This document shows, in pieces, positions 1-63,703 of a stretch of 64,000 nt of DNA. The DNA lies in IMG/VR virus record IMGVR_UViG_2974779775_000001, positions 60,108 through 124,107 of that record; one strand, given 5' to 3'. Within the stretch, counting starts at the first letter, position 1; every line of letters begins with the position of its first letter. Source of the stretch: Samistivirus egole. Taxonomy: Duplodnaviria; Heunggongvirae; Uroviricota; Caudoviricetes. Position numbers and translations under genes: made by a program. Under the pieces are notes generated by a model that worked only from the letters and a program-made list of their open reading frames with translations, was not told where the DNA came from and ran no database searches.

Positions 1-3000
1 ATGACTCAGACTGTCGAACTACACCTTCATGACCATTACTCCTCCATGGACGGAACCAATACTGCTGCTGAGTATATGGTTCGCGCCAAGGAATTGGGAA
101 TGACGCACCTTGCCCAGACGAATCACGGTACCCTTGGTGGCCACCGCGAGTTTCAGCAAGCTGCGAAGGATGCAGGTATTGTTCCAATTCTCGGTGTAGA
201 GGCTTACATCTCACCGACTGACCGTTTCGACAAGCGCTCAAAGGCGTCTCGTTCAGACGGCACAAACGCATACAACCACCTTATCATTCTGGCTCAGAAT
301 GAGACTGGTCTACAGACTCTCAACCGAATCAACCGTGTCGGATGGACTGAGGGCTTTTACTCAAAGCCTCGTATCGACATGGAAGTTCTGGAAAACGACA
401 ACGAGGGTCTGATTGTTCTTTCTGGGTGTCTTAACGGACTCATCTGTAAGGCAATCGAGCGAGGTGAGCTTGATGAGGCTATGGCTATTGCCGACCGATT
501 CAAGAACATTCTTGGCGACCGATTCTTCATTGAGGTTCAGGGTCACAACCCTGTCGATATGAATGCGGCACTATTTCACATTGCTGACGCTAAGGGCATT
601 AAGCCTGTCGTCACAAGTGACTGCCACTACGCTCGTAAGGAAGACCTGTGGATTCAGGAAGCTATGCTCATCCTGTCCACAAACCCCAAGAAGAACAAGG
701 ACGCTGAGTTCTCCAAGTCTCAGAAGATGGAGATGCTGGAGCGGTTCAATTACCTGTACCCTGACCGCAAGATGACGTTCGAGAAGATTGAGATTTACCT
801 TCACGACGCTGAGGAGCACCGTCAGGCATTTAAGGCGCAGGGATTTGACCGTGAGGACATCATCACCAATACCCATGTCGTTGCTGACATGATTGGTGAC
901 TATCCGTTCCATCAGGGTCTTGACCTTCTGCCTCGTCCAAAGGATGGAAATCCTGACGACCTGCTTGAGGAAATGTCTCGAAAGGGCCTGGAAGACAAGG
1001 GTCTCTCTGGCGATAAGAAGTATGTAGAGCGACTTGAGGAAGAACTTGAAATCATCAAGTCAAAGGACTTCTCTACCTACTTCCTCATTGTTGAGGACAT
1101 GATTTCATGGGCTAAGTCTCAGGGAATTATGGTTGGTCCTGGTCGTGGTTCTGGTGCTGGTTCACTCGTGAACTACGTACTTGGCATCACTGACATTGAC
1201 CCAATCGCTGAGAACCTGCTGTTCTTCCGATTCATTAACCCTGAGCGAAATGACTTCCCTGACATTGACACCGACTTCGAGGATGCTCGTCGTGGTGAGG
1301 TCAAGGAATACCTTCGCAAGAAGTACAAGAACGTAGCGTCCATTGCCACCTTCACCTTCTTTGGTGATAAGGCGGTAGTAAAGGATGCTGCTCGTGTATT
1401 CTGTGTTCCTGTTGGTGAGGTAAACCGAGCACTCAAGTTCGTTGATAAGTGGGAGCAGTTCCTTAACTCTCCAACGACTGAGGAGTTCCGCAAGAAGTAT
1501 CCAGAAGTCATCACCCTGGCAGAACGCCTTCGTGGTCGTATCCGTCAGACTGGTATGCACGCGGCTGGTGTAGTAATTGCAAATCAGCCTCTGGCCAACT
1601 TCGCGCCCATCGAAACCGCAAAGGACCCGAACGACCCTAACGGTCCTCGTATCCCTCTTGTGGCTATGGACATGGACCAGGCAGCAGACCTTGGATTGGT
1701 AAAGCTTGACGCCCTTGGGCTTAAGGCTCTCAGTATCATCAAGGACACCATCAAGATGATTGAGGACCGTCACAACAAGAAGATTGTGTTGAATGACATT
1801 CCTCTGACCGACAGCCGTGTATATGGAATGCTCTCTGAGGGATACACCAAGGGTGTGTTCCAGTGTGAGGCGACCGCATACACCAAGTTGATTATCAAGA
1901 TGGGTGGCGTTCAGAACTTCGATGAGCTTGCTGCGTCTAACGCTCTTGTTCGTCCTGGTGCAATGAACACCATTGGTGCCGAGTACATCGCTCGTAAGAA
2001 CGGAAAGTCTCCTGTAAAGTATCACCACTTTGAGATGAAGCCATTCACCTCTGAGACCTATGGTGAGATTCTGTACCAGGAGCAGGTCATGCAGACCATG
2101 ACAGAATTGGCCGGAATGAAGATGGCCACTGCTGACAAGGTTCGTAAGATTATTGGTAAGAAGAAGGACGCACGTGAGTTCGACCAGTACCGAGAGGAAT
2201 TCCTTGAGGGAGCATCCAAGAAGGTCCACCCTGCTGTTGCTGAAAAGCTCTGGCATGACTTCGAGGCTCACGCTGGATACTCATTCAACAAGTCTCACGC
2301 TGTAGCGTATTCTCGCCTCAGCTATTGGACTGCGTGGCTCAAGAAGCATTACCCACTTGAGTTCATGTGTGCTACCCTTCGCAATGAGGGGGACAAGGAT
2401 GCTCTGACCGAGTACCTGATTGAGACGAAGCGCATGGGCATCAAGATGCTTCTGCCTCACGTCAATGTGTCAGGGGTCAACTTCGAAATTGAGGGTGACG
2501 CCATTCGGTTCGGTCTGACGAACATCAAGTTCATTCGTGAGCCTGGTGCTTTGCAGCTCATTGAGTATCGCCCCTTCACCTCTTACTCTGACCTGTATGC
2601 CAAGGTCAACGAAAAGGGCAATGGACTGAGCGCTAGGACCCTCACAGGTCTTAATGCAATCGGTGCGTCTGCCTTTGAGGACCATCCTCGCACAGGAGAG
2701 GAGCGAGAGAACTACTACGAGTACCTTCGCATTCCTGCCTTCGAATTGAAGTTCATTCCTCCAAAGGTCAGGGCACAAATGACTGACCTGGAAGACTACA
2801 AGGACAAGGGAGCGTTCTGCGTCCTTGCAATGGTTCGAGGAATCAAGCGAGGAGAAGGCTGGGCACGTCTGGACTTGATTGATGAGACTGGCACTGCTGG
2901 TGTCTTCACGAATCCAGAGACGCCTATTGAGTCTGGCCAGATGTATGCTATCCTGGTATCTGACAACAGGGTTGCGAGGTTTGCGACCATGGACGAGCTG

Positions 3001-3285
3001 ATTCACAGGATTCCTAACGGCTTCGTGGACTATCTGTATGCGAGTGAATACGGTGACATTCCGGAAGGCATGTACAAGGTGCTTGCTTTCCAGCGGTACG
3101 TTACGAAGGCGAAGAAGACAATGGCGTATACGACAGTATGCGATTCTGACAAGAATCTGTATCCTGTGATGGCCTTCCCTACCATGTTCCACAAGGCATA
3201 TGGTAAGTGCAAGGATGGTGCGGTAATCGACGCTATTCTCAAGCAGACTCAGGAAGGTAGCTGGTTCTACGACAATATCCTGTGA
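1..3285 (+). CDS. dnaE: DNA polymerase III alpha subunit (DnaE-like replicative polymerase)
   Basis: 1094 aa with an N-terminal PHP domain (HLHDHYSSMDG) and polymerase core motifs. The ORF begins at base 1 of the window. Confidence 0.9.
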   Translation: MTQTVELHLHDHYSSMDGTNTAAEYMVRAKELGMTHLAQTNHGTLGGHREFQQAAKDAGIVPILGVEAYISPTDRFDKRSKASRSDGTNAYNHLIILAQNETGLQTLNRINRVGWTEGFYSKPRIDMEVLENDNEGLIVLSGCLNGLICKAIERGELDEAMAIADRFKNILGDRFFIEVQGHNPVDMNAALFHIADAKGIKPVVTSDCHYARKEDLWIQEAMLILSTNPKKNKDAEFSKSQKMEMLERFNYLYPDRKMTFEKIEIYLHDAEEHRQAFKAQGFDREDIITNTHVVADMIGDYPFHQGLDLLPRPKDGNPDDLLEEMSRKGLEDKGLSGDKKYVERLEEELEIIKSKDFSTYFLIVEDMISWAKSQGIMVGPGRGSGAGSLVNYVLGITDIDPIAENLLFFRFINPERNDFPDIDTDFEDARRGEVKEYLRKKYKNVASIATFTFFGDKAVVKDAARVFCVPVGEVNRALKFVDKWEQFLNSPTTEEFRKKYPEVITLAERLRGRIRQTGMHAAGVVIANQPLANFAPIETAKDPNDPNGPRIPLVAMDMDQAADLGLVKLDALGLKALSIIKDTIKMIEDRHNKKIVLNDIPLTDSRVYGMLSEGYTKGVFQCEATAYTKLIIKMGGVQNFDELAASNALVRPGAMNTIGAEYIARKNGKSPVKYHHFEMKPFTSETYGEILYQEQVMQTMTELAGMKMATADKVRKIIGKKKDAREFDQYREEFLEGASKKVHPAVAEKLWHDFEAHAGYSFNKSHAVAYSRLSYWTAWLKKHYPLEFMCATLRNEGDKDALTEYLIETKRMGIKMLLPHVNVSGVNFEIEGDAIRFGLTNIKFIREPGALQLIEYRPFTSYSDLYAKVNEKGNGLSARTLTGLNAIGASAFEDHPRTGEERENYYEYLRIPAFELKFIPPKVRAQMTDLEDYKDKGAFCVLAMVRGIKRGEGWARLDLIDETGTAGVFTNPETPIESGQMYAILVSDNRVARFATMDELIHRIPNGFVDYLYASEYGDIPEGMYKVLAFQRYVTKAKKTMAYTTVCDSDKNLYPVMAFPTMFHKAYGKCKDGAVIDAILKQTQEGSWFYDNIL

Positions 3286-3293
3286 GGAGGATA

Positions 3294-3473
3294 ATGGACG
3301 AGGCAATCAGGCCAGAAGACATTCTGCGCCTGTTGCTTATCGCTAACGGCCCTGTCACTATCTCTGCTGAGGAGATGGACAGGGCTCTTGGCGATGCAAC
3401 ACACTATCAAGTAGCGGTAAGCTACGAACCATTCAAAGAAGAATTCACAATACACCTGGAGAACGATGATTAG
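3294..3473 (+). CDS. hypothetical protein
   Basis: Small + strand ORF overlapping the dnaE stop, with RBS GAGGAGG upstream. Confidence 0.4.
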   Translation: MDEAIRPEDILRLLLIANGPVTISAEEMDRALGDATHYQVAVSYEPFKEEFTIHLENDD

Positions 3474-3840
3474 CGGATTTGAAAACCTGGGCAACGACCT
3501 GAGCATTAACGACTATCAGCTAACTGCCAACGAGACTGCGATTTACCCTGAGAATGGTGAGGCCAGTACAGCAGCTATCAATTACTGCATTCTTGGCCTG
3601 GTTGGTGAGGCTGGCGAAATCGCAAACAGCTTCAAGAAGACCATTCGAGACGACAATGGCATTGTCACAGGAGAAAAGGCGAAGGCCCTCGCAGCAGAGC
3701 TTGGTGACGTTCTCTGGTATGCCGCTAATCTGGCGAGTGAGCTTGGCTATCCGCTTGAGCTAATTGCGAAGCAGAATCTACAGAAGCTCAAGTCACGTCA
3801 GGCACGAGGAGTGATTCAGGGCAGTGGCGACAACCGCTGA
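3466..3840 (+). CDS. mazG: MazG-like nucleotide pyrophosphohydrolase
   Basis: MazG motif EIANSFKKTIRDD...LGDVLWYAANLA. Its start overlaps the upstream ORF. Confidence 0.75.
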   Translation: MISGFENLGNDLSINDYQLTANETAIYPENGEASTAAINYCILGLVGEAGEIANSFKKTIRDDNGIVTGEKAKALAAELGDVLWYAANLASELGYPLELIAKQNLQKLKSRQARGVIQGSGDNR

Positions 3841-4031
3841 CGCCTGATATACTGAGCCTATGGCAACAGAAGCATATTTCCTCCGGGGAGTCGAAGACGA
3901 ACATCTATTGGTGTTTCGTGGAAACTCTTCGGAGGAAATTTTGTTTATCATTAAGCGGTTGGCCGCCTGCCGCGACAAAGAAATAAAGGCAATGGCAAGA
4001 AAACTTGAAGAGGAATGGAACCAGAGAGAAT

Positions 4032-5036
4032 ATGGAAATAGAAGAGGAGATTCTAGCTAAGCTAAGCCCAAAGGTATTGGCAAGAGCTAAGATGGCCTCA
4101 GAGGTGCAATTGATGAGGCAGCCCACTCCAAGCACAGGGCTGAATTCTGCATTGCGTGGAGGCATCGGCTATGGACGCCAGACCCTAATCTGGGGTAGCA
4201 AGTCAGCAGGAAAATCAACATTCTGTCTAGGGATGCTGGGAATTGCACAGGCGGCCGGTAAGAAGACGGCCTTTATTGACTCTGAGCAGTCCTTTGACCC
4301 CTCTTGGGCAGAGCGTCTAGGAGTAGATACAAGAAAGCTCATCTACACTGACGTAAAGACAATCGAAGATATGGTAAGCGCAGGAGTCGAGTTCATGAAG
4401 GCTGGCATTGATATTGTCACTGTGGACTCCATCTCAGCACTTCTTTCATCAGCCTACTTTGAGAAAGATAAGAAGGGTGATGAACTAAAGGAACTATCTG
4501 GCACAAAGCAGATTGGTTCAGAGGCAAGAGAGTTGGCTAATGGCGTAAAGATGCTTAACTACGCCAACAAGAAGACTGCTCTGGTTCTCATTTCCCAGGT
4601 ACGTAACAAGATTACTACCTATGGAGCTATGCATCAGGCGACCGGTGGTCACGCAGTGGACTTCTTTAGTTCTACAGTCGTAAAGCTATGGAGTTCTGCT
4701 CGTGAGGCAGACCAGATTATGGGTGAGGTCCACAATGGTGACCTTCTGCTAAAGGAGCCAATTGGTCGTGAAGTAAACTGGACCATTGACAAGAACAAGC
4801 TTGGTCCTCCAAACAAGACTGGCAAGTACAATCTCTTCTACGATGGCGACTTCGTAGGAATCGACAATATTGGTGAAGCAGCCGTTTTGGGTGTTGCGCT
4901 TGGCATTGTCGAGAAGAAGGGCGCTTGGCATTACTACGGAGACCTCAAGGTTCAGGGTGGAGACAATTTCGCCATTGAGCTACGAGCTAATCCTGAATTG
5001 GCTGAAAAGCTGGTGAAGGAGGTAGAGGGCGCGTGA
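4032..5036 (+). CDS. RecA-family recombinase
   Basis: Walker A GSKSAGKST and a RecA core (TAFIDSEQSFDP, VTVDSISALL). A TTG start at 4005 is also possible. Confidence 0.8.
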   Translation: MEIEEEILAKLSPKVLARAKMASEVQLMRQPTPSTGLNSALRGGIGYGRQTLIWGSKSAGKSTFCLGMLGIAQAAGKKTAFIDSEQSFDPSWAERLGVDTRKLIYTDVKTIEDMVSAGVEFMKAGIDIVTVDSISALLSSAYFEKDKKGDELKELSGTKQIGSEARELANGVKMLNYANKKTALVLISQVRNKITTYGAMHQATGGHAVDFFSSTVVKLWSSAREADQIMGEVHNGDLLLKEPIGREVNWTIDKNKLGPPNKTGKYNLFYDGDFVGIDNIGEAAVLGVALGIVEKKGAWHYYGDLKVQGGDNFAIELRANPELAEKLVKEVEGA

Positions 5037-5233
5037 TTAATCCATTCGCTGAGCAGCCGAAGAAGCCTGTCGATGAACTTCCTATGGGAATCGTCATCGA
5101 CGGCTCTTTCGTCTGTATGACTTGTGGCCACGTTTGTGACGAAGCAGAGTATTTTCCAGTGGACAAGATTCTTGTATGGATTTGTGTCGAGGAGCACAAG
5201 TCTGCTATTGAGAATTTCAATCTAGGAGTGTAA
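5033..5233 (+). CDS. small zinc-ribbon protein
   Basis: Paired cysteines (CMTCGH...C) in an ORF that overlaps both neighbours. Confidence 0.4.
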   Translation: MINPFAEQPKKPVDELPMGIVIDGSFVCMTCGHVCDEAEYFPVDKILVWICVEEHKSAIENFNLGV

Positions 5234-5553
5234 TGACTGAGCTAAACGAAATCAAGAGAGATGGTGCCAAAGCACAGAAGAATTCTGGGCGTGGTCAATT
5301 CCAAAAGGGTGACGCCACGCTAGGACCCTTCTGCTACGACATCAAAGAGTATGCCAAGTCTTTCAGTGTTTCCCAGGCTGTGTGGGGCAAGATTTGCACA
5401 GACGCCTTCCGGTCTGGTAACATGATTCCTGCGCTCAAGCTCGTCCTAGGCGCAGCAGACAAGAAGACTCGTGTCTGGGTAATTGGGGACGATATGTTCA
5501 AGGAGATGCTAGAAGCATGGGAGGAGAAGTATGGCGAAGCTAATGAGGGTTGA
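5233..5553 (+). CDS. hypothetical protein
   Basis: ORF in the + strand gene array with no recognisable motif. Confidence 0.4.
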   Translation: MTELNEIKRDGAKAQKNSGRGQFQKGDATLGPFCYDIKEYAKSFSVSQAVWGKICTDAFRSGNMIPALKLVLGAADKKTRVWVIGDDMFKEMLEAWEEKYGEANEG

Positions 5554-5740
5554 GTATATTCGTCGTGACAATGGCGGATGGCTGGCGTACAAGAAGTATG
5601 ACGACGGCAGCGAATATGGAGGCCCGGTAAGTAAGCAGGAGGTCGAGAACATGATTCTTGAAATGTTTGATGACCTAGGTGGCGTAATGATGCCAACCGA
5701 CCTTGTGAAGGATGATGATGAGCGACCTGACGCCTCTTGA
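5531..5740 (+). CDS. hypothetical protein
   Basis: Overlapping + strand ORF. Confidence 0.35.
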   Translation: MAKLMRVEYIRRDNGGWLAYKKYDDGSEYGGPVSKQEVENMILEMFDDLGGVMMPTDLVKDDDERPDAS

Positions 5741-6053
5741 GCACATTTCAAAGATTGGTGAGTTTCAGGAGCTTCATGACTTCATGGAGGACCCGGAACT
5801 AGATGAGGCAATGGCTGTCATGGTACAGCTCATGATGAATCCAAACCTCAAGCCAGAAACCAATCAGCGACTCATCGTCCAGCTACAGGCGTATGCTGCA
5901 AAGTTCAGCATGCTTGCCTCTATCTATAGCACAATCAAAAAGGCACCTGCTGGTAGTCCAAACAACTTCAAAAAGAATATCTACTACACGACGGCTGAGT
6001 CAATCGACAAGCTAGTCCAGGCATTGAAGTACACTTTCAAGTTGCCCTACTGA
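5712..6053 (+). CDS. hypothetical protein
   Basis: + strand ORF with no recognisable motif. Confidence 0.4.
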   Translation: MMMSDLTPLEHISKIGEFQELHDFMEDPELDEAMAVMVQLMMNPNLKPETNQRLIVQLQAYAAKFSMLASIYSTIKKAPAGSPNNFKKNIYYTTAESIDKLVQALKYTFKLPY

Positions 6054-6097
6054 TGTGTTACAATAGTAATCACTAAGAGAAACGGAAACTAACAACA

Positions 6098-6871
6098 ATG
6101 TCTAACGGACTACTTAAGATTGCTCGTCTGGGAAAGAAGGCGGACTTCGATATCAAGAAGCTGGTATCAGTTCTCGAAGACGCCTATGTAAATTCCCGGC
6201 CGAAGGAAAGATATTCCAAGAAGGTCTCATTTAGTCCGTCCTCTCTTGGCTATGGTGCCGGTACCTGTCCTAGGTACTGGTATCTGGCTTTTGAGGGCGG
6301 AACTTTTGTCGATACCTTTGATGGACTGAGTGTCGCCAACATGGCAAACGGAACAGCCGCACATACTCGCATCGAAAAACTATTCGGTGATGCTGGTGTG
6401 CTTGATGAAGCAGAGCGAGAGATTACCTATGCAGACCCTCCAATTCGAGGGTTCGTGGACGTAATCGTAGATTTCGAAGGACGAAAGATTGTTGGTGAGT
6501 TTAAGACGACTCGTCAGGAATCATATATCCATCGTGAAACAAATGGAACAGCAATTGACTATCATAAGGTTCAGGTTCTCGTGTACATGCGAGTGCTTGG
6601 CCTAGACGATGGCTTCGTTCTCTACGAAAACAAGAACACGCAGGAACTATTCCTCGTCCCCATTACAATGGATGAGGCGAACAGTGAATATACCGACTAT
6701 CTGTTCGATTGGATGCGTGACACACGAAAGACATGGGAAGACAAGACTCTGCCTACCCGACCATTTACCCAAAAGAGTAAAGCGTGCAAGTCCTGCGCGC
6801 TATTCAATGTGTGTTGGAACGAATCTCCAGAAGGCGACATTACTAAGGCACCACTGGAGGTGAAGAAGTAA
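6098..6871 (+). CDS. Cas4/RecB-like PD-(D/E)xK nuclease
   Basis: D..E.K core (DVIVDFEGRKIVGEFKTT) plus a C-terminal cysteine cluster (CPRYW...CKSCALFNVC) typical of Fe-S Cas4-family exonucleases. Confidence 0.7.
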   Translation: MSNGLLKIARLGKKADFDIKKLVSVLEDAYVNSRPKERYSKKVSFSPSSLGYGAGTCPRYWYLAFEGGTFVDTFDGLSVANMANGTAAHTRIEKLFGDAGVLDEAEREITYADPPIRGFVDVIVDFEGRKIVGEFKTTRQESYIHRETNGTAIDYHKVQVLVYMRVLGLDDGFVLYENKNTQELFLVPITMDEANSEYTDYLFDWMRDTRKTWEDKTLPTRPFTQKSKACKSCALFNVCWNESPEGDITKAPLEVKK

Positions 6872-7153
6872 TTGATTTGCGCCTACGGAGAATGCGGTAA
6901 CATGTTTGAGCCCAAGACTCATAATCAGAAGTTTTGCAGCTCAGCATGTTGCCGTAAGGCGACCAACGCAAGAATCATGGAGAAGTATTACGCTCGGCGT
7001 GCACGTCAAAAGGGAATCCTAAGAACGTGCTCTGAGTGCCCCACTGTGCTCTCCAGATATAACAGCTCAGACAAATGCGAGGGCTGTAAAGCGGAGCAGC
7101 GCCGGAAGGAACGAGTGGAACTATTGGAGTTGATTGGTAGTGCCTCTGTCTGA
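6872..7153 (+). CDS. zinc-ribbon DNA-binding protein
   Basis: Two CxxC pairs in a basic protein. Confidence 0.4.
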   Translation: MICAYGECGNMFEPKTHNQKFCSSACCRKATNARIMEKYYARRARQKGILRTCSECPTVLSRYNSSDKCEGCKAEQRRKERVELLELIGSASV

Positions 7154-7709
7154 TATACACAAGACAAAGGCTCGAAGGGTCATGGGAATTGACTGCTCTA
7201 CCAAATCCATAGCATTCACTATCTTTGACGGGGAAGACTTCTTGAAGTGTGGAGAGGTCTTCTTCAATGGAGCGACAGTATTCGAAAGAGTGCATGATGC
7301 GAACGTAAAGACCCTCGCACTCTTCGAACACTTCTCTCCTGATTTTGTTGCAATTGAAGCAGCCATTATGGTTCGAAGTACATCAGTCGCTATTAAGATG
7401 GCTTATGTGTTTGGTGCCGTGATTGCTGCTCTCTTGAAAAAGGGAGCAACTGTAATTGAAGTCCCACCGATTTCATGGCAATCATTCATTGGCAATAAGA
7501 ATCTGACGAAGGCAGAGAAGGATGCTATAAAGGCAGAATTTCCTGGTAAGTCTGCAAGTTGGTATCAGAATAAGGGCAGACTGATGAGGAAGCAGCGCAC
7601 CATTGACTTTGCTAAACGAGAGTTTGGCGTCGAGCTAGAAAGCGATAACGTAGCTGATTCACTAGGCATTGCCTGGTGGGCAGTGAAGAATAAGACACGA
7701 AGGAGTTAG
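7134..7709 (+). CDS. RuvC-like Holliday junction resolvase
   Basis: RuvC N-terminus VMGIDCSTKSIAFTIFD with downstream acidic residues. The true start may be the internal ATG at 7182. Confidence 0.7.
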   Translation: MVVPLSDIHKTKARRVMGIDCSTKSIAFTIFDGEDFLKCGEVFFNGATVFERVHDANVKTLALFEHFSPDFVAIEAAIMVRSTSVAIKMAYVFGAVIAALLKKGATVIEVPPISWQSFIGNKNLTKAEKDAIKAEFPGKSASWYQNKGRLMRKQRTIDFAKREFGVELESDNVADSLGIAWWAVKNKTRRS

Positions 7710-7710
7710 C

Positions 7711-8169
7711 ATGATTGTTGCGGGAACAGGTCATAGAGATTTGAGGGACCGTGACTGGATTGCTGCCCAAACTGAGAAGGCCCTCATTGATATGGGGGCC
7801 TCTTTGGTTTATGTAGGCATGGCATCTGGTTTCGACCTCCTATTGGCGAAAACGGCATGGGGACTCAAGATTCCCTTCATTGCTGCAAAGCCATGGAGAG
7901 GCCACAAGCCACGTAGAGCAGACGAGTACGACTATCACAGGGCTCTACAACTGGCTGATGAGGTCATCAACGTATTGCCAAATGACGACTACCCTGGAGC
8001 ATGGGCTTACCAAAAGCGCAATGAATACATGGTGGACCACGCAGAAGGCGTCCTTGGAATGCTTGAGGCTGGTAAGACTGGGGGCACGTACAATTGCATT
8101 AAGTACGCCTCTGGCAAGATGCCAATCAAGATTATTGACCCTCTGATGAAGGAGGTGTGGGATGTCTAA
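7711..8169 (+). CDS. SLOG/DprA-like Rossmann-fold protein (DUF1273/DUF2493-like)
   Basis: N-terminal GxGxR (IVAGTGHRD) and a later GG-T motif. Confidence 0.35.
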   Translation: MIVAGTGHRDLRDRDWIAAQTEKALIDMGASLVYVGMASGFDLLLAKTAWGLKIPFIAAKPWRGHKPRRADEYDYHRALQLADEVINVLPNDDYPGAWAYQKRNEYMVDHAEGVLGMLEAGKTGGTYNCIKYASGKMPIKIIDPLMKEVWDV

Positions 8170-8326
8170 GAAGAAAAAGAAAGAGTATTACAAGAGTGAG
8201 AAATGGCTGAGGGCACGTTATCGACAAAAGAACGCTCGCCAGATTGCCGAAGAGTGTGGTGTCTCAGAGATGACAATCACTCGCTATCTTGAGACGTTCA
8301 ACATCACACGTAGACGTAGCCGTTGA
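8162..8326 (+). CDS. small HTH DNA-binding protein
   Basis: 54-aa basic ORF containing an HTH-like segment (IAEECGVSEMTITRYL). Confidence 0.35.
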   Translation: MSKKKKKEYYKSEKWLRARYRQKNARQIAEECGVSEMTITRYLETFNITRRRSR

Positions 8327-8964
8327 CCTGTGCTATGCTGACCTCTATGATGAAGATTGGCATGATGGGCGCACACGGGACAGGGAAGACTTCCATGGCA
8401 GAAGCCATGGTTGAAGGACCATTCAAATTGTTTTCCCTGGTCCCATCAACGGCCCGGCAGATAAAAGCATATGGCTATCCTATTAACAGAGAAGCCACAG
8501 AGCTAAGTCAGATTCTCGTTCCCCTTCTACGAATGATTGATGAAGCAGAGGCTACAGTCAATCCACACAACAGAATGTATAAGCAAGGACTCATCTCAGA
8601 CAGAACGCTGGTTGACTCTCTTGCCTACACGATGTATCAGTGTGCTAACGTATGGGAGAGTGGAGAATTCATTGAGCACGTCACATATCGTCTGACTCAG
8701 ATGTATATGAAGACATACTCACTTCTCCTCTACTTCCCAATTTACTGGGGAAATGTGGACGATGGAGTCCGAGACCCTGATGAGAAGTACCGCAGAGAAA
8801 TCGACAATAACGTAAAGACAGTCCTGGATATGTTGGATGTTCCCTATTTCACGGTTCCTGATGTATCTCCTCAAATGCGTGTGAGCTGGCTTGTTGACAA
8901 GCTGGACGTTCAGCGTGAGGAAGATGCCCGGAAGTGGATGGAAATCTTTCAGGGCATGATATAA
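8323..8964 (+). CDS. P-loop NTPase (possible nucleoside/nucleotide kinase)
   Basis: Walker A GAHGTGKTS. Confidence 0.5.
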   Translation: MTCAMLTSMMKIGMMGAHGTGKTSMAEAMVEGPFKLFSLVPSTARQIKAYGYPINREATELSQILVPLLRMIDEAEATVNPHNRMYKQGLISDRTLVDSLAYTMYQCANVWESGEFIEHVTYRLTQMYMKTYSLLLYFPIYWGNVDDGVRDPDEKYRREIDNNVKTVLDMLDVPYFTVPDVSPQMRVSWLVDKLDVQREEDARKWMEIFQGMI

Positions 8965-8988
8965 TTATCTTGAAAGTGAGGAGATACT

Positions 8989-9309
8989 ATGGGAACACCG
9001 ACTAGAAGGCGCTCAAGGGAAAAGAATCCTGATGCCTGGTGGCAGGGAGCGTACAGCGGAATCCCACACATCATCGCTTCATATGAATTCGAAATTGATG
9101 GAGACACGGTTCTGCCAAAGGCTCTCATCAAGTTCAAAAATACGCGAGGCTCATTCAAGTTCCGATGTGTGGCAACCAATACTCAGACTGGCAAAACCTG
9201 GATTGACTGCATCAATGCAGATACAGGTGAATGGAAGTCTTTCTATGTGGAAAAGCTCAAGGGACTCGTAAAGCCAAGGCGTCCACGTAGAAGGAGAAAG
9301 GTTGCCTAA
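8989..9309 (+). CDS. hypothetical protein
   Basis: + strand ORF with a basic C-terminus. Confidence 0.4.
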   Translation: MGTPTRRRSREKNPDAWWQGAYSGIPHIIASYEFEIDGDTVLPKALIKFKNTRGSFKFRCVATNTQTGKTWIDCINADTGEWKSFYVEKLKGLVKPRRPRRRRKVA

Positions 9310-9829
9310 AGAACTAGACACGCTTGACCGAATTGAGCAGATGAACACGGTCGTAGCGGCTCATCTTAAGGGCGACAATGCCACTGCAATTGCTCGTAGT
9401 ACGGGCATGAAGCGTGCTCAAGTCATTGAGTATATTGACGAGTGGAAGCTCATCGCTCAGAATAATAAGGCAATCCAGGCGCGAGCCACGGAAGCCTTGA
9501 CTGGCATGGATGAGCATTACAACATGATTATCAGAGAACTCTGGGAAGTCCTAGAGGAAGCTGATATGAACAATGACCTCAAGACAAAGACTACTGTCCT
9601 GAAAAACCTGGCAGATGTTGAGGGCAAGCGAGTAGACCTTTTGCAGAAGGCTGGTCTCATTGACAGTCAGCATGCAGGAGATGAAGTAATCGAGATGGAG
9701 CGAAAGCACGAAATTCTCATTAGCATTCTCCGAGAAGTGACATCTGATTGTCCACATTGCAAGGTCGAAGTTGCTCGAAGGCTGAGCAGGGTCACTGACA
9801 AGACAGAGACCATTGTCGTTCCGAATTGA
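9302..9829 (+). CDS. putative terminase small subunit
   Basis: HTH-containing N-terminus lying directly upstream of the large terminase. Confidence 0.4.
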   Translation: MPKELDTLDRIEQMNTVVAAHLKGDNATAIARSTGMKRAQVIEYIDEWKLIAQNNKAIQARATEALTGMDEHYNMIIRELWEVLEEADMNNDLKTKTTVLKNLADVEGKRVDLLQKAGLIDSQHAGDEVIEMERKHEILISILREVTSDCPHCKVEVARRLSRVTDKTETIVVPN

Positions 9830-9831
9830 TT

Positions 9832-9871
9832 AAATCCCTTCATGATATACTTTATATCAATGAAGGGATTT
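9832..9871. terminator. perfect 12-bp inverted repeat hairpin (terminator or packaging-related site)
   Basis: AAATCCCTTCAT-N16-ATGAAGGGATTT followed by a T-rich tract, between terS and terL. Confidence 0.4.
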
Positions 9872-9875
9872 AGTT

Positions 9876-11696
9876 TTGTCTACTGATTTTGCTGAGTTCT
9901 TCAATGCGTTGTCAGACGACGACTTTGAAGAAATTCCAGTCGATATCGAGGTCTTCGTGCAGAGCGAAGACTATCTAGGCATGCCTCATTTGTCCGAATA
10001 TCAGTACCAGCTCATTCGTGCTAGCAGTCAGATTTACAAGCAAAGCACACTGTACAACCTCTATGAGGCAGAAAAGGCAGAACGACGCTGGAAAGAAACG
10101 TGCAACGAGGTAATTGCCTGTTTGGGTAAGGGTAGTGGTAAGGACTTCACGTCAACTATTGCCTGTGCCTACATTGTTTATTTGCTGCTGTGTCTACGTA
10201 ATCCAGCAAAGTATTTTGGAAAGCCTGCTGGCGACTCCATTGACATTCTGAACATTGCTATCAACGCAGCGCAGGCCAACAACGTATTCTTTAAGGGATT
10301 CAAGAGCCGCATTGAGGGCTCTCCCTGGTTTGAAGGAAAGTATACGACCAAGGCTGGGCACATCGCTTTCGAGAAAAACATCAACGTCTACTCAGGGCAC
10401 TCTGAGCGTGAAGCCTGGGAGGGCTATAACCTCATCTATTGCGTTCTTGACGAGATTTCCGGTTTTGCACTCGACTCTACCTCTGGTAATGAGCAGGCAA
10501 AGACGGCTGACGCTGTCTATAAGATGTATCGAGCATCTGTTGACTCTCGATTCCCGGCAGAAGGAAAGGTAGTTCTTCTATCATTCCCTCGCTTCAAGAA
10601 CGACTTTATCTCTCAGAGATATGAGGCGGTAGTTGCAGAAAAGGAAGTAGTCGAGCGTAGCCATGTATTCAAGCTTGACCCTGAACTACCAGACGAGATT
10701 GAGGAAAACAAGTTCAGCATTAAGTGGGAGGAAGACCATATCATTTCCTACCACGTTCCTCGCGTCTATGCCCTGAAGCGTCCTACCTGGGAAGTCAATC
10801 CAACTCGTCAGATTGAAGACTTTACGACCGCATTCTTCACTGACCCAATTGATGCCCTTTCTCGATTTGCGTGTATGCCACCTGACGCCATTGATGCATT
10901 CTTCAAGGACAAGGAGAAGGTGGAAGCCTCTTTCGTTCGTCCTAATGGAGTTGACGAAGACGGCTCATACAGGGCAGACTTTACACCGAAGGAGGGTGTG
11001 CGCTACTATGTACACGTAGACCTTGCGCAGAAGCATGACCACTGTGCTGTAGCTCTTGCTCACGTTGAGAAGTTCGTACAGAAGAAGATTGGTGGTCAGC
11101 TTAACGAAGTGCTTCCTTATGTTGTGGTTGATGCTGTCCGATGGTGGACACCAAAGCCCGGTAAGGATGTTGACTTCGCTGATGTAAGAGACTACATTAC
11201 AGGATTGAAGCGCAGAGGTTTCGACCTCCGCCTAGTGACCTTTGACCGCTGGAACTCTAATGACCAGATGAAGTATCTGCGAGGAGTCGGTATTAATTCC
11301 GAGGTTCTTTCAGTGGCAAAGAAGCACTACGAAGACTTGAGCTGGGTCATCTATGACCAGAGACTTATGGGTCCAGATGTATCATTGCTCAAGAGGGAAT
11401 TGCTAGCACTGCGTATCATGCCAAATGACAAGATTGACCACCCTAGAACGGGGTCAAAGGACTTGGCTGATGCAACGTGTGGAGCAGTTCACAATGCAAT
11501 TACATACACGCCACGAGACGAGTTTGCTACCATTGAGGTACAAACGTACGAGTCAATCAGGCGGGCAGAAGTTGAGGCCAAGCGTGAGGAGCTTGACATG
11601 GCTCGTGAACGTGATAATGTAATTGAAGTGCCTCGTGAGCAAAGAAAGATGCCAGATGAATTGGCTGATTATCTCACGAAGCTAGAAATTATCTGA
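9876..11696 (+). CDS. terminase large subunit
   Basis: 606 aa with an ATPase-like GKGSGKD and Walker B (VLDEISGF) plus a C-terminal acidic nuclease region. Flanked by an HNH gene as in many phages. Confidence 0.6.
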   Translation: MSTDFAEFFNALSDDDFEEIPVDIEVFVQSEDYLGMPHLSEYQYQLIRASSQIYKQSTLYNLYEAEKAERRWKETCNEVIACLGKGSGKDFTSTIACAYIVYLLLCLRNPAKYFGKPAGDSIDILNIAINAAQANNVFFKGFKSRIEGSPWFEGKYTTKAGHIAFEKNINVYSGHSEREAWEGYNLIYCVLDEISGFALDSTSGNEQAKTADAVYKMYRASVDSRFPAEGKVVLLSFPRFKNDFISQRYEAVVAEKEVVERSHVFKLDPELPDEIEENKFSIKWEEDHIISYHVPRVYALKRPTWEVNPTRQIEDFTTAFFTDPIDALSRFACMPPDAIDAFFKDKEKVEASFVRPNGVDEDGSYRADFTPKEGVRYYVHVDLAQKHDHCAVALAHVEKFVQKKIGGQLNEVLPYVVVDAVRWWTPKPGKDVDFADVRDYITGLKRRGFDLRLVTFDRWNSNDQMKYLRGVGINSEVLSVAKKHYEDLSWVIYDQRLMGPDVSLLKRELLALRIMPNDKIDHPRTGSKDLADATCGAVHNAITYTPRDEFATIEVQTYESIRRAEVEAKREELDMARERDNVIEVPREQRKMPDELADYLTKLEII

Positions 11697-59860: not shown

Positions 59861-60102
59861 TGGATGAAAGAGAATCATTTGTATTGACGACTGACTCTGC
59901 AATCATAGATTCTGTAGAGGAAGCAGTGAGGAATCTGAACATCTCAGTCTCACTCCTATCAGCGATTCTTCAAGAGGCTTTGGCTAAGGCAAAGGTTCCT
60001 ATTGATGATGACACGGTAGATGCTTTTGGAATCGTTGAACAGAGCACTGCGTCAATTAATATGTTCCTTGAAAGGCTGGGTCTGTGGAATTCAAAGGACT
60101 AG
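59860..60102 (+). CDS. hypothetical protein
   Basis: + strand ORF. Confidence 0.4.
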   Translation: MDERESFVLTTDSAIIDSVEEAVRNLNISVSLLSAILQEALAKAKVPIDDDTVDAFGIVEQSTASINMFLERLGLWNSKD

Positions 60103-60359
60103 CCAAAGAGTTCAAGGGAGTCTTTGATGAAAAAGGGTATCAATGGATGATTGGTGGCGTCTTGACAGTGCCATCAGAACGAGATATCCTTGATACGTTG
60201 GAGCAGGTGGTTGAGAGAATCGCCAAGGAGCCTAGCGGCACCTGGGTAGAGCTTGGCCGCCTTATCTTCATCAAGACTGGTAGTCTCATTGATGTGTACC
60301 TGCATCATGGGACAATAGAGAGGCAAGATGAACAACCCCCTACGGAGCCTGTACTTTAG
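60084..60359 (+). CDS. hypothetical protein
   Basis: + strand ORF. Confidence 0.4.
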   Translation: MEFKGLAKEFKGVFDEKGYQWMIGGVLTVPSERDILDTLEQVVERIAKEPSGTWVELGRLIFIKTGSLIDVYLHHGTIERQDEQPPTEPVL

Positions 60360-60386
60360 GCTCCGTAAAGCAATTTACAACTATCT

Positions 60387-60815
60387 GTGAGGAAAATCGT
60401 GGACTTCATTTACACCAATGCAATTGGCACCAACAGCAGCGCTCTCCAGGGTGTCTACTGGAACAAGAACTCAGAGGAACTGGTCGTTCAGTTCTGGGGT
60501 GGCAGTGTCATTAAGTACACTGGCTTCAACGAGGATGACTACCGTGCATTTGCCAGTGCTCTGAGCAAGGGTCGCTTCTACTCTCAGTACGTGAAGGGCA
60601 ACTTCCGTGGTGAGAAGATGGACAATGAGACCAACTTCGTTCACGAGCAGGACGTAGTTACTCCTTTCTCTGAGGTCAAGGAGCTTGAGGCTGAGGTCGG
60701 TCCTTCAATTCAGGTAACCGTCAACATCTACGTCAACGGAGACCCTGACTCAATTGCTAAGGCGGTTGAGCGTCTTGCCCCCAGCATTCGTGCAGTACAG
60801 AATTGGAGGGGATGA
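60387..60815 (+). CDS. hypothetical protein
   Basis: + strand ORF. Confidence 0.45.
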   Translation: MRKIVDFIYTNAIGTNSSALQGVYWNKNSEELVVQFWGGSVIKYTGFNEDDYRAFASALSKGRFYSQYVKGNFRGEKMDNETNFVHEQDVVTPFSEVKELEAEVGPSIQVTVNIYVNGDPDSIAKAVERLAPSIRAVQNWRG

Positions 60816-61120
60816 GAATCCTAGTAAAGGTAGATGACCTCAAGGATTTTGAGTCATACACCAGCCGCAAGGCAATCGTTGTTTTCTCTGCGCCTGATTG
60901 GTGCGTGCCTTGTCAGAGGCTACAGCCACACATCGAGAAGCTGGCTGAGAAACTAGACTATCCTGTCGTGTATGTAGACATCGACAAGGCAGAGGAAATC
61001 AAGAATACGCAGCAGGTCATGTCAGTGCCACAGGTTTACGAATTTGTGGAGGGCAAGCCTGGGCGTGCCCTTAAGGGACGTACTGTCCTTGCAATGGAAC
61101 GGGAACTAGCCGCTGAGTAA
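60803..61120 (+). CDS. thioredoxin
   Basis: Active site WCVPC in a protein of about 105 aa. Confidence 0.75.
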   Translation: MEGMRILVKVDDLKDFESYTSRKAIVVFSAPDWCVPCQRLQPHIEKLAEKLDYPVVYVDIDKAEEIKNTQQVMSVPQVYEFVEGKPGRALKGRTVLAMERELAAE

Positions 61121-61132
61121 TCAGCGGCTTTT
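61108..61132 (+). terminator. rho-independent terminator
   Basis: AGCCGCTGA-GTAA-TCAGCGGCT followed by TTT, overlapping the trx stop. Confidence 0.6.
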
Positions 61133-61450
61133 GCCGTATCACTTGACTTTGACAAGTGATGAGCGTAACATAGCTCTATGGAAACGGTGCTGATGTACGC
61201 TATAGGCTTGCTGCTAGGTCTAATAGGTATTGGACTGGCAGAGTTGTCTTATGTTTTCATCAAGCGCTACGACATTCCAGGCTTTTATTGGCCAGACGTG
61301 GAAGAAGATGAGGATAGTGTCGTGTGAACAATGTGGTTCCACGTGCGATGACAGCGTAAGCTTTGATACTCTGATGAGACGAGTATTCTTTTGCTGCCTA
61401 TCACACAGGGCAGCCTGGTTCTTTGGATGGCTGTGAAATGTTTTTTGTGA

Positions 61451-62005
61451 TTGGGGGACTCGTATGGGTCCTCCTCATTCTTTTTATTTGTCGATGGTTC
61501 TATGTCATCAGCGAAAGGCGAGAAGGTGACTCCAGTACAACCAATCGTGAAGTTTGATGGTCAGTATGATTGGCTATCTAACTTCTATGTCAGGCCAGTC
61601 AAAGTAGGTAATCTGACATTTAGCAACAACGAAGCGGCCTTCCAGGGAGCCAAGTACAAAGCGGCTCTCTGCGACCAGGCTGAGCAATACCGTTATCTTG
61701 AGAAGATGGTTCAGGCCGACCCACAAACTGCAAAGAACATGGGTAGGCGCATCCCTCTAGACCTTGACAAGTGGGAGTCCATCAAGGTAACGTGTATGAG
61801 AGAGGTAGTCAAGGCGAAGTTCGACCAGCATGCTGACCTACACACAAAGCTTATTGAAACTGGTGCTGCTCTGCTAGTAGAGGGCAATCATTGGGGAGAT
61901 AAGTTCTGGGGCCGGTGCGATGGTAAGGGCTTGAATGTCCTTGGCTCTATCTTGATGGAACTAAGAGGCTACTACTTCTGGAAGGAATACCAGAGTATAT
62001 GGTAA
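61451..62005 (+). CDS. NADAR-domain protein (YbiA/DUF1768-like)
   Basis: LSNFY, TFSNNEAAFQGAKY, LVEGNHWGDKFWG and LGSILMELR motifs. Confidence 0.65.
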   Translation: MGDSYGSSSFFLFVDGSMSSAKGEKVTPVQPIVKFDGQYDWLSNFYVRPVKVGNLTFSNNEAAFQGAKYKAALCDQAEQYRYLEKMVQADPQTAKNMGRRIPLDLDKWESIKVTCMREVVKAKFDQHADLHTKLIETGAALLVEGNHWGDKFWGRCDGKGLNVLGSILMELRGYYFWKEYQSIW

Positions 62006-62499
62006 ACGTACTCAATGACATCAGGAAAATGCGTGACCTACCTGATGCAGAGGTGTCATCCAAGTTCAAGGGACTTGTTGATGGCTATGTAAGAGACTTG
62101 ACCAAGAACAAGTCAAAGGGCAATCCAGGCTCAGGCTCTATCCCTTCTGTGCGCGTCGGTAGAATTCGCAGAAGGAAGGGGCAGCTCATCCCCTCAGAGA
62201 TTCTTTTCGCAATGCGTAAGAGCCTGTGGGAGATGGGTTGGACACAGGGCGTACTAAAGAACGCAGAAGGACACATGTGTCTGCGTGGTGCCATGGTGTA
62301 TATCAATCTTAAGGGTCATGCTCACAACGATGACTTGCAGATTGCGGCCCAATACCTGCATGATGAGGTGAGGCGAAAGAATGGCGATGCTCGCCAGTAC
62401 AATTTCATTTACTGGAATAACGATGAGCGTCGAACCCTTGCTGAAATCCTCAAGATTCTAGAGGATTGTGGTAATCGTGCCAGACTCGCAGGGGAATGA
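61999..62499 (+). CDS. hypothetical protein
   Basis: + strand ORF. Confidence 0.45.
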   Translation: MVNVLNDIRKMRDLPDAEVSSKFKGLVDGYVRDLTKNKSKGNPGSGSIPSVRVGRIRRRKGQLIPSEILFAMRKSLWEMGWTQGVLKNAEGHMCLRGAMVYINLKGHAHNDDLQIAAQYLHDEVRRKNGDARQYNFIYWNNDERRTLAEILKILEDCGNRARLAGE

Positions 62500-62944
62500 G
62501 TGGCAGCGTCTTGGATTCACTTCTGAGCCTGAGTTTATTAGGAGTAATGAGGAGTGGGACGAGATTGTTGAGCACTTTCAAAGGGCAGTGGATTCGTACA
62601 GACGAATCGGGCCGGTAGTCATTGAGGCGAGTGAATCTCTAAGTAGGTTCTCTCGCTACATTGAAGAGGCTGATGCTGCTCAAGAAGAAAGAATCAGGGA
62701 GACACAAGCAATGGCAGTAGACATCAGGCATGGTGAGTATCCAGGCCGAGACAGTTATGGGACGTATTGGTATGACCCTTCTGGATTTCATTCTGATGAC
62801 CCTCACGTATGCTTCATCTGTGGCAGACCAACTGGCCGCATCGATATCGATTTTCATGGAGCATTCTGCAATTCGGAAGAGTGCAACGAAGTGATTCGTA
62901 TCGACCTTGAACGTGCGAATGGTGGTCCAGAGAATGAAGTATAG
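62468..62944 (+). CDS. hypothetical protein with a C-terminal zinc finger
   Basis: CFICGRP...CNSEEC. Confidence 0.45.
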   Translation: MVIVPDSQGNEWQRLGFTSEPEFIRSNEEWDEIVEHFQRAVDSYRRIGPVVIEASESLSRFSRYIEEADAAQEERIRETQAMAVDIRHGEYPGRDSYGTYWYDPSGFHSDDPHVCFICGRPTGRIDIDFHGAFCNSEECNEVIRIDLERANGGPENEV

Positions 62945-63152
62945 GATTCATCTGGGTCTCATGTCAGGCAAGCTGGTCTATTCAGACCCTATGGATGTAG
63001 GCAAGATGGACCACGAAGAGGTCACAGACACTCTTGAGAAAATGTTGGAAATCGTAGGCGATGGTGGGCACATCAGTCTTTTGGTCAATGGCCAGAAGAA
63101 GACGTACCTTAATCACGCTATCGAATCAATCTGGTGGACTGACGGCAGTTGA
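62937..63152 (+). CDS. hypothetical protein
   Basis: + strand ORF. Confidence 0.35.
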   Translation, partial: KYRIHLGLMSGKLVYSDPMDVGKMDHEEVTDTLEKMLEIVGDGGHISLLVNGQKKTYLNHAIESIWWTDGS

Positions 63153-63187
63153 CAATCTCGTAACTCATGCTTTAGCATGAGAGCATT

Positions 63188-63424
63188 ATGAGATATACAA
63201 TTGTGAAAGAGCCTCTTAAACGAGGCCGGACTGTGGAGGGCTACAACTGGGCAATTACTGATACCAAAGTAGACAAGGTTGTAGTCCGCTATGGAAATGA
63301 ATTCAAGGCTGAGTTCGTCAAGGACTCCTTCAATGAAGCAAACGTAAGCAGCAGATTCGAGTTTGAAATCCCTGGCGACGAGACCATTGAAGACCTCGAT
63401 GAGTCAGCATTCAAAGGGGAATGA
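63188..63424 (+). CDS. hypothetical protein
   Basis: + strand ORF. Confidence 0.45.
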   Translation: MRYTIVKEPLKRGRTVEGYNWAITDTKVDKVVVRYGNEFKAEFVKDSFNEANVSSRFEFEIPGDETIEDLDESAFKGE

Positions 63425-63703
63425 GTGCTAGAGAAATGGGCATGGTGGTATTTGGGCCGGTGCATGGAGAAGCATCGTAAGGCTAATAGACACCACTGTG
63501 CAGACCACATACGAGCAGCGCTAGCCACAAGACCACAGAAACAATGTACCTTGTGCTGCATACTTGAGAACACAGATTGGCTAGCATGGGCAACGAGGTT
63601 TGACCCAACGTCCGACATGGACAAGGACAGTGAGCTATATGCAAGTATTGTTGAAGATGAATCCCGGTTTGGAGATGTGGTTCGGAGAACAGGTCTGGAT
63701 TGA
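63425..63703 (+). CDS. Cys/His-rich hypothetical protein
   Basis: ATGAGTG-coupled GTG start. Confidence 0.4.
   Translation: MLEKWAWWYLGRCMEKHRKANRHHCADHIRAALATRPQKQCTLCCILENTDWLAWATRFDPTSDMDKDSELYASIVEDESRFGDVVRRTGLD

Follow-up and report, generated by a model that had tools for sequence, protein, structure and literature searches.

A stand-alone Glu-type NADAR protein of Streptomyces phage EGole and its possible role in AdfN-like counter-defence

NADARs remove the ADP-ribose that DarT1 and Streptomyces ScARP attach to guanine N2 (PMC11543638), and the orphan phage NADARs AdfN-T4, AdfN-Bas32 and AdfN-Bas60 neutralise DarTG1 in infection, with none of them countering DarTG2 (Johannesman et al. 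2025, PMC11825919). AdfN-Bas32 neutralises DarT1 and allows phages to grow again on DarTG1 hosts (PMC11825919). Here, we describe gene 249 of Streptomyces phage EGole, which lies on a 64,000-nucleotide stretch of DNA (the window; positions 60,108 to 124,107 of the IMG/VR record IMGVR_UViG_2974779775_000001). Based on its sequence and a structure model, the product of this gene, gp249, is predicted to be a stand-alone, catalytically competent NADAR N-glycosidase of the Glu type. By analogy with the AdfN proteins, we favour with moderate confidence a role in counter-defence, in which gp249 would erase host-made ADP-ribosylation from phage nucleic acids.

The described NADARs differ in the residue of their last beta-strand, which is Glu in YbiA-type enzymes and in the "NADAR" family proper, Asp in DarG1 (BC4488), which also has an N-terminal extension, and His in T4-type proteins (PMC11543638, PMC11125620, PMC12945103, PMC11825919). 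All four E. coli-associated NADAR subtypes are active in vitro on ADP-ribose (ADPr) linked to guanine (G-ADPr) and inactive on ADPr linked to thymidine (T-ADPr), and neither YbiA nor T4 gp30.3 rescued DarT1 toxicity in uninfected cells (PMC11125620). A YbiA-type enzyme serves as antitoxin to the ADP-ribosyltransferase (ART) YarT, and YbiA-type enzymes hydrolyse both G-ADPr and cytosine-linked ADPr (C-ADPr; PMC11125620, PMC12945103). Cytidine is also ADP-ribosylated by ScARP and Scabin, and C-ADPr is removed solely by the Glu-type families, i.e., NADAR proper including SCO5665 and the YbiA type, and not by DarG1- or T4-type proteins (PMC12945103). In Streptomyces coelicolor, SCO5665 reverses G- and C-ADP-ribosylation by ScARP (SCO5461; Mikolcevic et al. 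2026, PMC12945103).

Region 60000-63500 of the window is 100% identical to the genome of phage EGole (NC_055791.1 / MK494112; 135,653 bp; genus Samistivirus, family Stanwilliamsviridae), and record positions were converted to window positions by subtracting 60,107. The deposited record lists gene 249 (YP_010101623.1) as a "hypothetical protein", with "glycosylase" given in its note, and the product has 159 amino acids, a mass of 18.4 kDa and a pI of 8.4. The gene and the elements on which its assignment depends are as follows.

61526..62005, plus strand: NADAR-domain gene (gene 249), 159 amino acids, GTG start and TAA stop; from Pfam, the deposited start, homologue lengths, the ratio of nonsynonymous to synonymous substitution rates (dN/dS) and the AlphaFold2 (AF2) model
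61631..61654, plus strand: codons E36 (61631-61633) to K43 (61652-61654), the invariant Glu/Lys pair
61880..61909, plus strand: codons E119-G-N-H-W-G-D125-K-F-W128, the clade signature GNxWGDxxWG

The open reading frame (ORF) 61451..62005 on the plus strand, within which the gene lies, is real, and its translation holds LSNFY, TFSNNEAAFQGAKY and GNHWGDKFWG...LGSILMELR, the motifs from which a previous sequence-only reading of this DNA had called a NADAR domain. This call was borne out by the Pfam search that the reading had proposed, since the NADAR family (PF08719 / DUF1768) matched with 81.3 bits and an E value of 1.2e-22 against a cutoff of 35.1 bits, well outside what chance would give. 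Gp249 also matched PHROG 1017, a family of unknown function, with an E value of 1.7e-46. The AlphaFold2 model, built with 39 homologues, reached a predicted local distance difference test score of 94.9 and a predicted template modelling (TM) score of 0.88. Using Foldseek, the model matched E. coli YbiA (2B3W; E 4.7e-9, TM 0.77) and the ADP-ribose complex of the Phytophthora nicotianae NADAR (PnNADAR; 8BAU; E 4.1e-7, TM 0.78), and no other PDB neighbour fell below an E value of 0.9; the model thus has the alpha-helical core fold of YbiA. A search of the PDB with the family profile recovered the same two structures (1.7e-29 for 2B3W and 1e-22 for 8BAU) and detected no DarG1-type chain at E<=1.

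Residue conservation was assessed over 39-40 homologues with 33-93% identity, and residues were mapped by alignment to 8BAU and 2B3W using the roles given in PMC11543638 and PMC12945103. F10, L17, S18, N19, E36, K43, W83, M91, K98, N121 and D125 are invariant, whereas E119, W123, W128, K70 and G73 are conserved in at least 90% of the homologues; R74 is present in EGole and, by inspection, is Arg or Lys elsewhere in the alignment. E36, K43, R74 and W83 of gp249 correspond to E43, K50, R79 and W89 of PnNADAR, and K87, E119, D125 and W128 to R93, E125, D130 and W133. The E36/K43 pair has further equivalents in E36/K43 of the T4 AdfN and E87/K94 of SCO5665, and together with S18 it makes up the Ser/Glu/Lys set of the substrate channel. 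E119, located in the last beta-strand within LLVEGN, is by alignment to PnNADAR the catalytic Glu, and D125 and W128 are ADP-ribose contacts. Thus, as far as alignment can tell, the active site of gp249 is intact, with all catalytic and ADP-ribose-contacting residues kept. The sequence-only reading had let its call hang on the presence of catalytic Glu and Asp residues, and E36, K43, E119 and D125 are all in place. Pairwise comparison with Peebs, Jay2Jay, Braelyn, Elmer, Birchlyn and Coruscant gave dN/dS values of 0.10-0.14, which indicates strong purifying selection on the gene.

E119 matches E125 of PnNADAR and E167 of SCO5665, whereas DarG1 has Asp and T4-type NADARs have His at this position. 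Together with the lack of an N-terminal extension, this residue places gp249, on sequence, among the Glu-type NADARs and makes it neither DarG1-like nor T4-like. In detail, the catalytic Asp of DarG1 (D171 in the E. coli C7 NADAR) is replaced by Glu, only ~9 residues precede F10, where DarG1 carries a beta-sheet/helix extension with a basic groove for single-stranded DNA, and the gene is adjoined by a KTSC-domain gene, a thioredoxin gene, a 49-amino-acid ORF and a DUF6197 gene rather than showing a DarT1-adjacent layout (no DarT-specific search was made). As for the T4 type, gp249 has Glu rather than His and no match to PF08010 (Phage_30_3), and blastp against T4 gp30.3 aligned 29 amino acids with an E value of 0.008. 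DarG1 and T4 gp30.3 (AdfN-T4) have in common with the EGole protein the superfamily, the fold core, the Glu/Lys pair and the proposed removal of ADP-ribose from guanine N2. Because every tested NADAR hydrolyses G-ADPr, gp249 would most probably hydrolyse, in vitro, the N-glycosidic linkage of ADP-ribose to guanine, be it in DNA or in RNA, and because Glu-type families have cytosine activity, it probably acts on C-ADPr as well. A Glu-type site therefore predicts dual G/C-ADPr hydrolysis, an activity absent from DarG1- and T4-type NADARs.

The closest validated phage protein is AdfN-Bas32 (bas33_0070 / QXV80081.1) of the T5-like phages Bas32 and Bas33, which is likewise a stand-alone NADAR of ~150-160 amino acids without N-terminal extension. 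Both proteins share the E/K pair, the Glu-type site, the GNxWGDxxWG loop and near-equal scores against the NCBIfam model TIGR02464, and blastp aligned them with 37.7% identity over 146 amino acids (E 2e-27). They differ in host phylum and phage family, and the Bas33 gene lies amid nucleotide-metabolism genes, whereas that of EGole lies amid small genes of unknown function. Moreover, AdfN-Bas32 neutralises DarTG1 by experiment, whereas the EGole protein is known here from its sequence and model. In a quick neighbour-joining tree of 109 sequences, computed without bootstrap, T4 gp30.3 formed a distant outgroup and YbiA was sister to the rest. The Streptomyces-phage NADARs formed their own clade within a star-like bush, not beside AdfN-Bas32; the bush also holds AdfN-Bas32 itself and archaeal as well as bacterial stand-alone and fused proteins.

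No Macro, NadD, NadE, RibA or Alt-like ART was detected in EGole using phmmer with single-sequence seeds, a search of limited sensitivity that included no DarT-specific query, and no ART, Macro, NadD, NadE, RibA or riboflavin gene appears in the deposited annotation. With no partner annotated or detected, the EGole NADAR is therefore an orphan. In line with the AdfN class, it is phage-encoded, comes without a cognate toxin, has an intact E/K pair and is homologous to a validated member. PADLOC returned only a weak PDC-M42C match for gp249 (43.8 bits) and no DarG-type match for either gp249 or the validated AdfNs, which makes it uninformative for this class, and the anti-phage NADAR protein DS-32 (NCBIfam NF053876) scored 46 bits against a cutoff of 240. 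In the AdfN-like role, a host nucleic-acid ADP-ribosyltransferase would modify bases of phage DNA and/or RNA, and the orphan, antitoxin-like gp249 would, during infection, cleave off the ADP-ribose carried on the exocyclic amino groups of guanines and, probably, cytosines. With the modification undone, phage replication and expression could continue, as in the AdfN mechanism. Possible host transferases are a DarT1-type enzyme, a ScARP/Scabin-type enzyme or an undiscovered one.

Among solved structures, E. coli YbiA is the best match both in structure and in sequence (41.9% identity, E 3e-24) and is also of the Glu type, and E119 is the Glu of the last beta-strand by which de Souza & Aravind define the YbiA subfamily. 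In addition, TIGR02464, the riboflavin-intermediate N-glycosidase model, is the top NCBIfam match of gp249. These matches, as well as fusions of Streptomyces relatives to GTP cyclohydrolase II (see below), could suggest that gp249 is a YbiA-type damage-control N-glycosidase acting on reactive riboflavin-pathway intermediates (products of RibA and RibD), i.e., an auxiliary metabolic gene, an alternative the sequence-only reading had also raised. However, the score of 67.5 bits against TIGR02464 stays below the cutoff of 73.7, whereas YbiA itself reaches 169.5. Further comparators were Coruscant (73.5), Wakanda (77.7), a Streptomyces NADAR-RibA fusion (76.6) and the validated AdfN-Bas32 (66.8), and since AdfN-Bas32 scores like gp249, such a score does not indicate a riboflavin role. 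The protein is stand-alone, and no fusion or genomic link to RibA or RibD was found, with no RibA-like ORF in the phmmer search described above, none annotated and no riboflavin gene among the neighbours. YbiA is chromosomal, lies beside rhlE, dinG and ybiB in an operon reported to be LexA-controlled, and has the loop EHTENDAYWG, compared to which EGNHWGDKFWG of EGole has a one-residue insertion and a W-G pair. Furthermore, a lytic phage family would hardly gain from lasting control of riboflavin overflow, and YbiA-type enzymes themselves hydrolyse G- and C-ADPr, one of them as the YarT antitoxin. Taken together, we regard a riboflavin function of gp249 as very unlikely.

A scan with one genome per species yielded 279 cellular relatives with 38-47% identity, many of which are stand-alone. 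Five Streptomyces chromosomal genes (loci L053, L065, L066, L069 and L070; ~3800-6500) encode fusions of ~400 amino acids between a NADAR domain, 41-43% identical to the phage protein, and GTP cyclohydrolase II (RibA), and a GT2 glycosyltransferase ORF directly downstream was seen in L053 and L066. In the nearest cellular relatives outside Streptomyces, the NADAR domain is fused to an N-terminal NadD-like cytidylyltransferase (four relatives), a C-terminal NAD synthase (one) or a C-terminal Macro domain (one). Fusions to NAD-biosynthesis and Macro domains fit the "NAD and ADP-ribose" name of the family, and together with the RibA fusions they link the clade in cells to riboflavin and to NAD/ADP-ribose metabolism. 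For a phage protein that stands alone, the substrate cannot be read from genomic context only.

The fusions to NadD-like, NAD synthase and Macro domains are in turn compatible with gp249 degrading or sequestering soluble ADP-ribose-derived molecules, such as immune signals, products of NADases or side products of RNA repair, instead of repairing nucleic acids. Iyer and Aravind argued from context that phage NADARs mostly act on such soluble derivatives (PMC9503650). EGole encodes an RNA ligase, a polynucleotide kinase, a Ro-like protein and 47 tRNAs, and in Wakanda (Loccivirinae; locus L091, 322-3513) the NADAR gene lies ~1.8 kb from a polynucleotide kinase gene. One version of this explanation would be non-catalytic binding of ADPr on a host effector, as reported for a phage NADAR-like inhibitor of Retron-Eco1; a passage in Johannesman et al. 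(PMC11825919) cites Carabias 2024 for a phage NADAR acting without enzymatic activity. However, strict conservation of the catalytic residues argues for catalysis over mere binding, every NADAR tested so far has ADPr attached to DNA or RNA bases as its substrate, and hydrolysis of an immune signalling nucleotide has been shown for no NADAR. Likewise, EGole has no annotated KptA/Tpt1-type partner that would make ADPr>p. Action on soluble derivatives thus appears rather unlikely to us.

Which host enzyme gp249 would counteract was considered separately. AdfN-Bas32, AdfN-Bas60 and AdfN-T4 all neutralise DarTG1, and Actinobacteria are enriched in DarTG, of unspecified subtype, among other systems (PMC10482375). 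As a subset of the counter-defence role, gp249 could hence be specifically anti-DarTG1, with DarT1 of a Streptomyces DarT1-NADAR system as the sole relevant host enzyme. In contrast, the DarTG reported for Streptomyces is the thymidine-specific DarTG2, whose product is no NADAR substrate, next to the pierisin-type G/C transferases ScARP and Scabin (PMC12945103), and our literature search found no paper linking DarTG1 with Streptomyces or other Actinobacteria. In addition, gp249 lacks the catalytic Asp and the N-terminal extension that are the hallmarks of DarG1. When plasmids were searched with T4 gp30.3, one Euzebya match without a DarT neighbour was found, in a search that used no DarT1 query sequence. 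We therefore consider an exclusively anti-DarTG1 function doubtful. Of the proposal made in the sequence-only reading, that a phage copy could neutralise host DarTG, the phage counter-defence part thus stands by analogy with AdfN-Bas32, whereas DarT as the target is unsupported for Streptomyces, where we found no report of DarTG1. The same reading had named DarT2 as the enzyme for a co-expression test, which is the wrong choice: since NADARs are inactive on T-ADPr, co-expression with DarT2 would be negative whatever the true role of the gene, and DarT1 or ScARP/Scabin would fit instead.

SCO5665 is of the Glu type, with E167 at the position of E119, and comes from the host genus of EGole. Its Ser/Glu/Lys residues are spaced equally (S69/E87/K94 in the published numbering, compared to S18/E36/K43). 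As a member of the "NADAR" family proper, it has extra flanking loops and helices, a comparison made by description and numbering only, and the 80 best genomic relatives of the EGole NADAR do not include it. A more specific possibility, which we hold to be speculative and on balance improbable, is that the Stanwilliamsviridae NADAR is the phage counterpart of this host immunity enzyme and guards DNA, and possibly the 47 tRNAs and the mRNAs, from ScARP or Scabin.

Several observations weigh against an AdfN-like role of gp249. The protein is as close to YbiA (41.9%) as to AdfN-Bas32 (37.7%), and YbiA failed to relieve the toxicity of DarT1 in vivo. Its nearest Streptomyces chromosomal relatives (41-43%) are the fusions to GTP cyclohydrolase II, a riboflavin context. 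No literature report of DarTG1 in Streptomyces was found and ScARP is a secreted toxin, which makes neither an obvious host transferase to meet phage nucleic acid. Retention of the gene throughout the phage family is universal rather than patchy and thus atypical of a narrow counter-defence gene, and the contextual case for soluble ADPr derivatives (PMC9503650) points the same way. Finally, counter-defence by gp249 and other Streptomyces-phage NADARs is proposed on the basis of their homologues.

Using tblastn, relatives were found in 729 of 50,697 phage records, with hosts including Staphylococcus (227), Streptomyces (125), Vibrio (88), Salmonella (51), Escherichia (41) and others. The E. coli and Salmonella matches listed are T5-like phages, including HildyBeyeler (Bas33), and the reciprocal tblastn search with AdfN-Bas32 recovered the same 125 Streptomyces phages. 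Among the latter, the NADAR is found in both subfamilies of the Stanwilliamsviridae in differing neighbourhoods, and the gene appears to be core, not accessory, in this family. The NADAR family is very common: BFVD contains 58 viral structures with the fold, and a HMMER scan of 1.84 billion cluster representatives returned 13,091 relatives at E<=1e-3, with 5,225 remaining at E<=1e-10. Labels of homologous phage NADARs vary and include "GTP cyclohydrolase II", "swarming motility protein", "riboflavin biosynthesis protein" and "glycosylase" (e.g., ON185581, NC_106721, MT311645, OQ689083). Such labels appear misleading and inherited from fusion proteins or old YbiA phenotypes.

While the 3' end of gene 249 was correct as first called (TAA, 62003-62005), the 5' boundary of 61451 was wrong, being merely the first TTG in a mechanical ORF. 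The true start is GTG 61526, for which the following elements around the 5' end are relevant.

61510..61525, plus strand: Shine-Dalgarno-like GAAAGGCGAGAAG, directly 5' of the GTG start, kept in EGole, Peebs, Jay2Jay, Braelyn, Elmer and Birchlyn
61453..61490 (hairpin 61453-61474 plus T-run), plus strand: terminator-like hairpin 2, inside the first-called N-terminal extension, with a 9-bp stem and a GUAU loop; from terminator scan and RNA fold
61393..61424 (hairpin 61393-61414), plus strand: terminator-like hairpin 1, 3' of gene 248, GCUGCC...GGCAGC with a T-rich tail; from terminator scan and RNA fold

GTG 61526 is the deposited start, and most homologues are 159 amino acids long. An alignment of the upstream regions of seven phages showed that the start position (GTG or ATG) is conserved, that an intermediate ATG at 61502 reads ACG in Peebs, and that the stretch from the position of this ATG to the start is interrupted by in-frame stops in Braelyn, Elmer and Birchlyn. 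Because of the deposited start, the homologue length, these stops together with the conserved start and Shine-Dalgarno-like sequence, and the hairpin within the 75-nt extension, a longer N-terminus from either TTG 61451 or ATG 61502 was ruled out. For Peebs (NC_042011.1; locus L002, 2207-2506), RefSeq annotates just a 99-amino-acid "glycosylase". Pseudogenisation was ruled out here as well, since the Peebs NADAR ORF is intact, with 159 amino acids and 99.4% identity to EGole, and the shorter annotation is a start-call artefact.

The two hairpins sit in tandem within the 198 nt that separate gene 248 from the NADAR gene, which begins ~35 nt 3' of the second one. The sequence of hairpin 1 is conserved in Peebs, Jay2Jay and Braelyn, and the stem of hairpin 2 is, by inspection, kept in relatives via changes in both arms (in Jay2Jay, G.U to A-U and A-U to G-C). 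Read-through and an unrecognised promoter are candidates for transcription of the NADAR gene past these hairpins. On its downstream side, gene 249 is followed by one further gene that it overlaps.

61999..62499, plus strand: DUF6197 gene (gene 250); Pfam DUF6197, 60.5 bits; PHROG 13109

At the junction with gene 250, its ATG and the NADAR stop lie within a shared 7 nt (ATGGTAA), and thus both genes are probably co-transcribed and translationally coupled. Gene 251 (62468/62478-62944, plus strand; PHROG 13110, no Pfam match) in turn overlaps gene 250, and the KTSC-domain protein and the small thioredoxin are encoded directly upstream (60387-61120, plus strand). The order KTSC-thioredoxin-NADAR-DUF6197 is kept in the Boydwoodruffvirinae, including Coruscant, whose NADAR is 50% identical and already annotated as "NADAR family protein". 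In Wakanda, the NADAR gene is located elsewhere and has no DUF6197 gene beside it, and both there and in Vibrio phage Vp_R1 it is near a polynucleotide kinase/phosphatase gene, which hints at an RNA-repair neighbourhood in these phages. DUF6197 is present in 83 phage records, all of Streptomyces phages, compared to 125 Streptomyces-phage records with NADAR, and the pairing is therefore local synteny rather than an obligate module. A functional NADAR-DUF6197 pair is accordingly unsupported, as overlap and synteny are confined to the Boydwoodruffvirinae. Recent acquisition from the host is unsupported as well: the G+C content of the NADAR gene (0.486) equals that of its flanks (0.47-0.51), whereas that of the host is ~70%.

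With regard to the wider genome, the deposited annotation places most of the 47 phage tRNA genes and a transfer-messenger RNA at ~12,900-58,300 of the window (record 73,080-118,359), together with the genes for the Ro-like RNA-binding protein, RNA ligase and polynucleotide kinase, rIIA/rIIB-like genes and a dCMP deaminase gene. This heavy load of genes for RNA and translation autonomy may be of importance should ADP-ribosylated RNA be a further substrate of the NADAR. EGole genes 255-262 duplicate genes 1-8 with an offset of 124,312 bp (record 1-11,300 and 124,313-135,653; the last window position is record 124,107). This duplication indicates a direct terminal repeat of ~11.3 kb, with the NADAR gene lying ~2.2 kb before its right copy. 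The left arm encodes three glycosyltransferases, a nucleotidyltransferase and a ThyX-like protein, which might indicate sugar modification of DNA or of the cell wall.

Counter-defence by orphan phage NADARs has already been published for homologues (PMC11825919), so that this idea, put forward in the sequence-only reading, is not new, and the enzyme belongs to a known class without a new mechanism. What remains of interest is that the gene appears to be core to an entire family of large actinophages, while the documented G/C transferases of the hosts are pierisin-type toxins and not DarT1. A better label for the mislabelled phage genes, also those deposited as "hypothetical protein", is NADAR family ADP-ribosyl-nucleobase glycohydrolase. 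If gp249 indeed acts like the AdfN proteins, the AdfN strategy known from E. coli phages would also be at work across an entire family of large lytic actinophages, and nucleobase ADP-ribosylation would be a persistent pressure on Streptomyces phages. ScARP and Scabin, or undiscovered G/C-directed transferases, would then be candidates for immune effectors in a genus of industrial importance. Should the phage NADAR prove to be a counterpart of SCO5665, ScARP-like "secreted toxins" would be real anti-phage effectors and the phage enzyme the first counter-defence against cytidine ADP-ribosylation.

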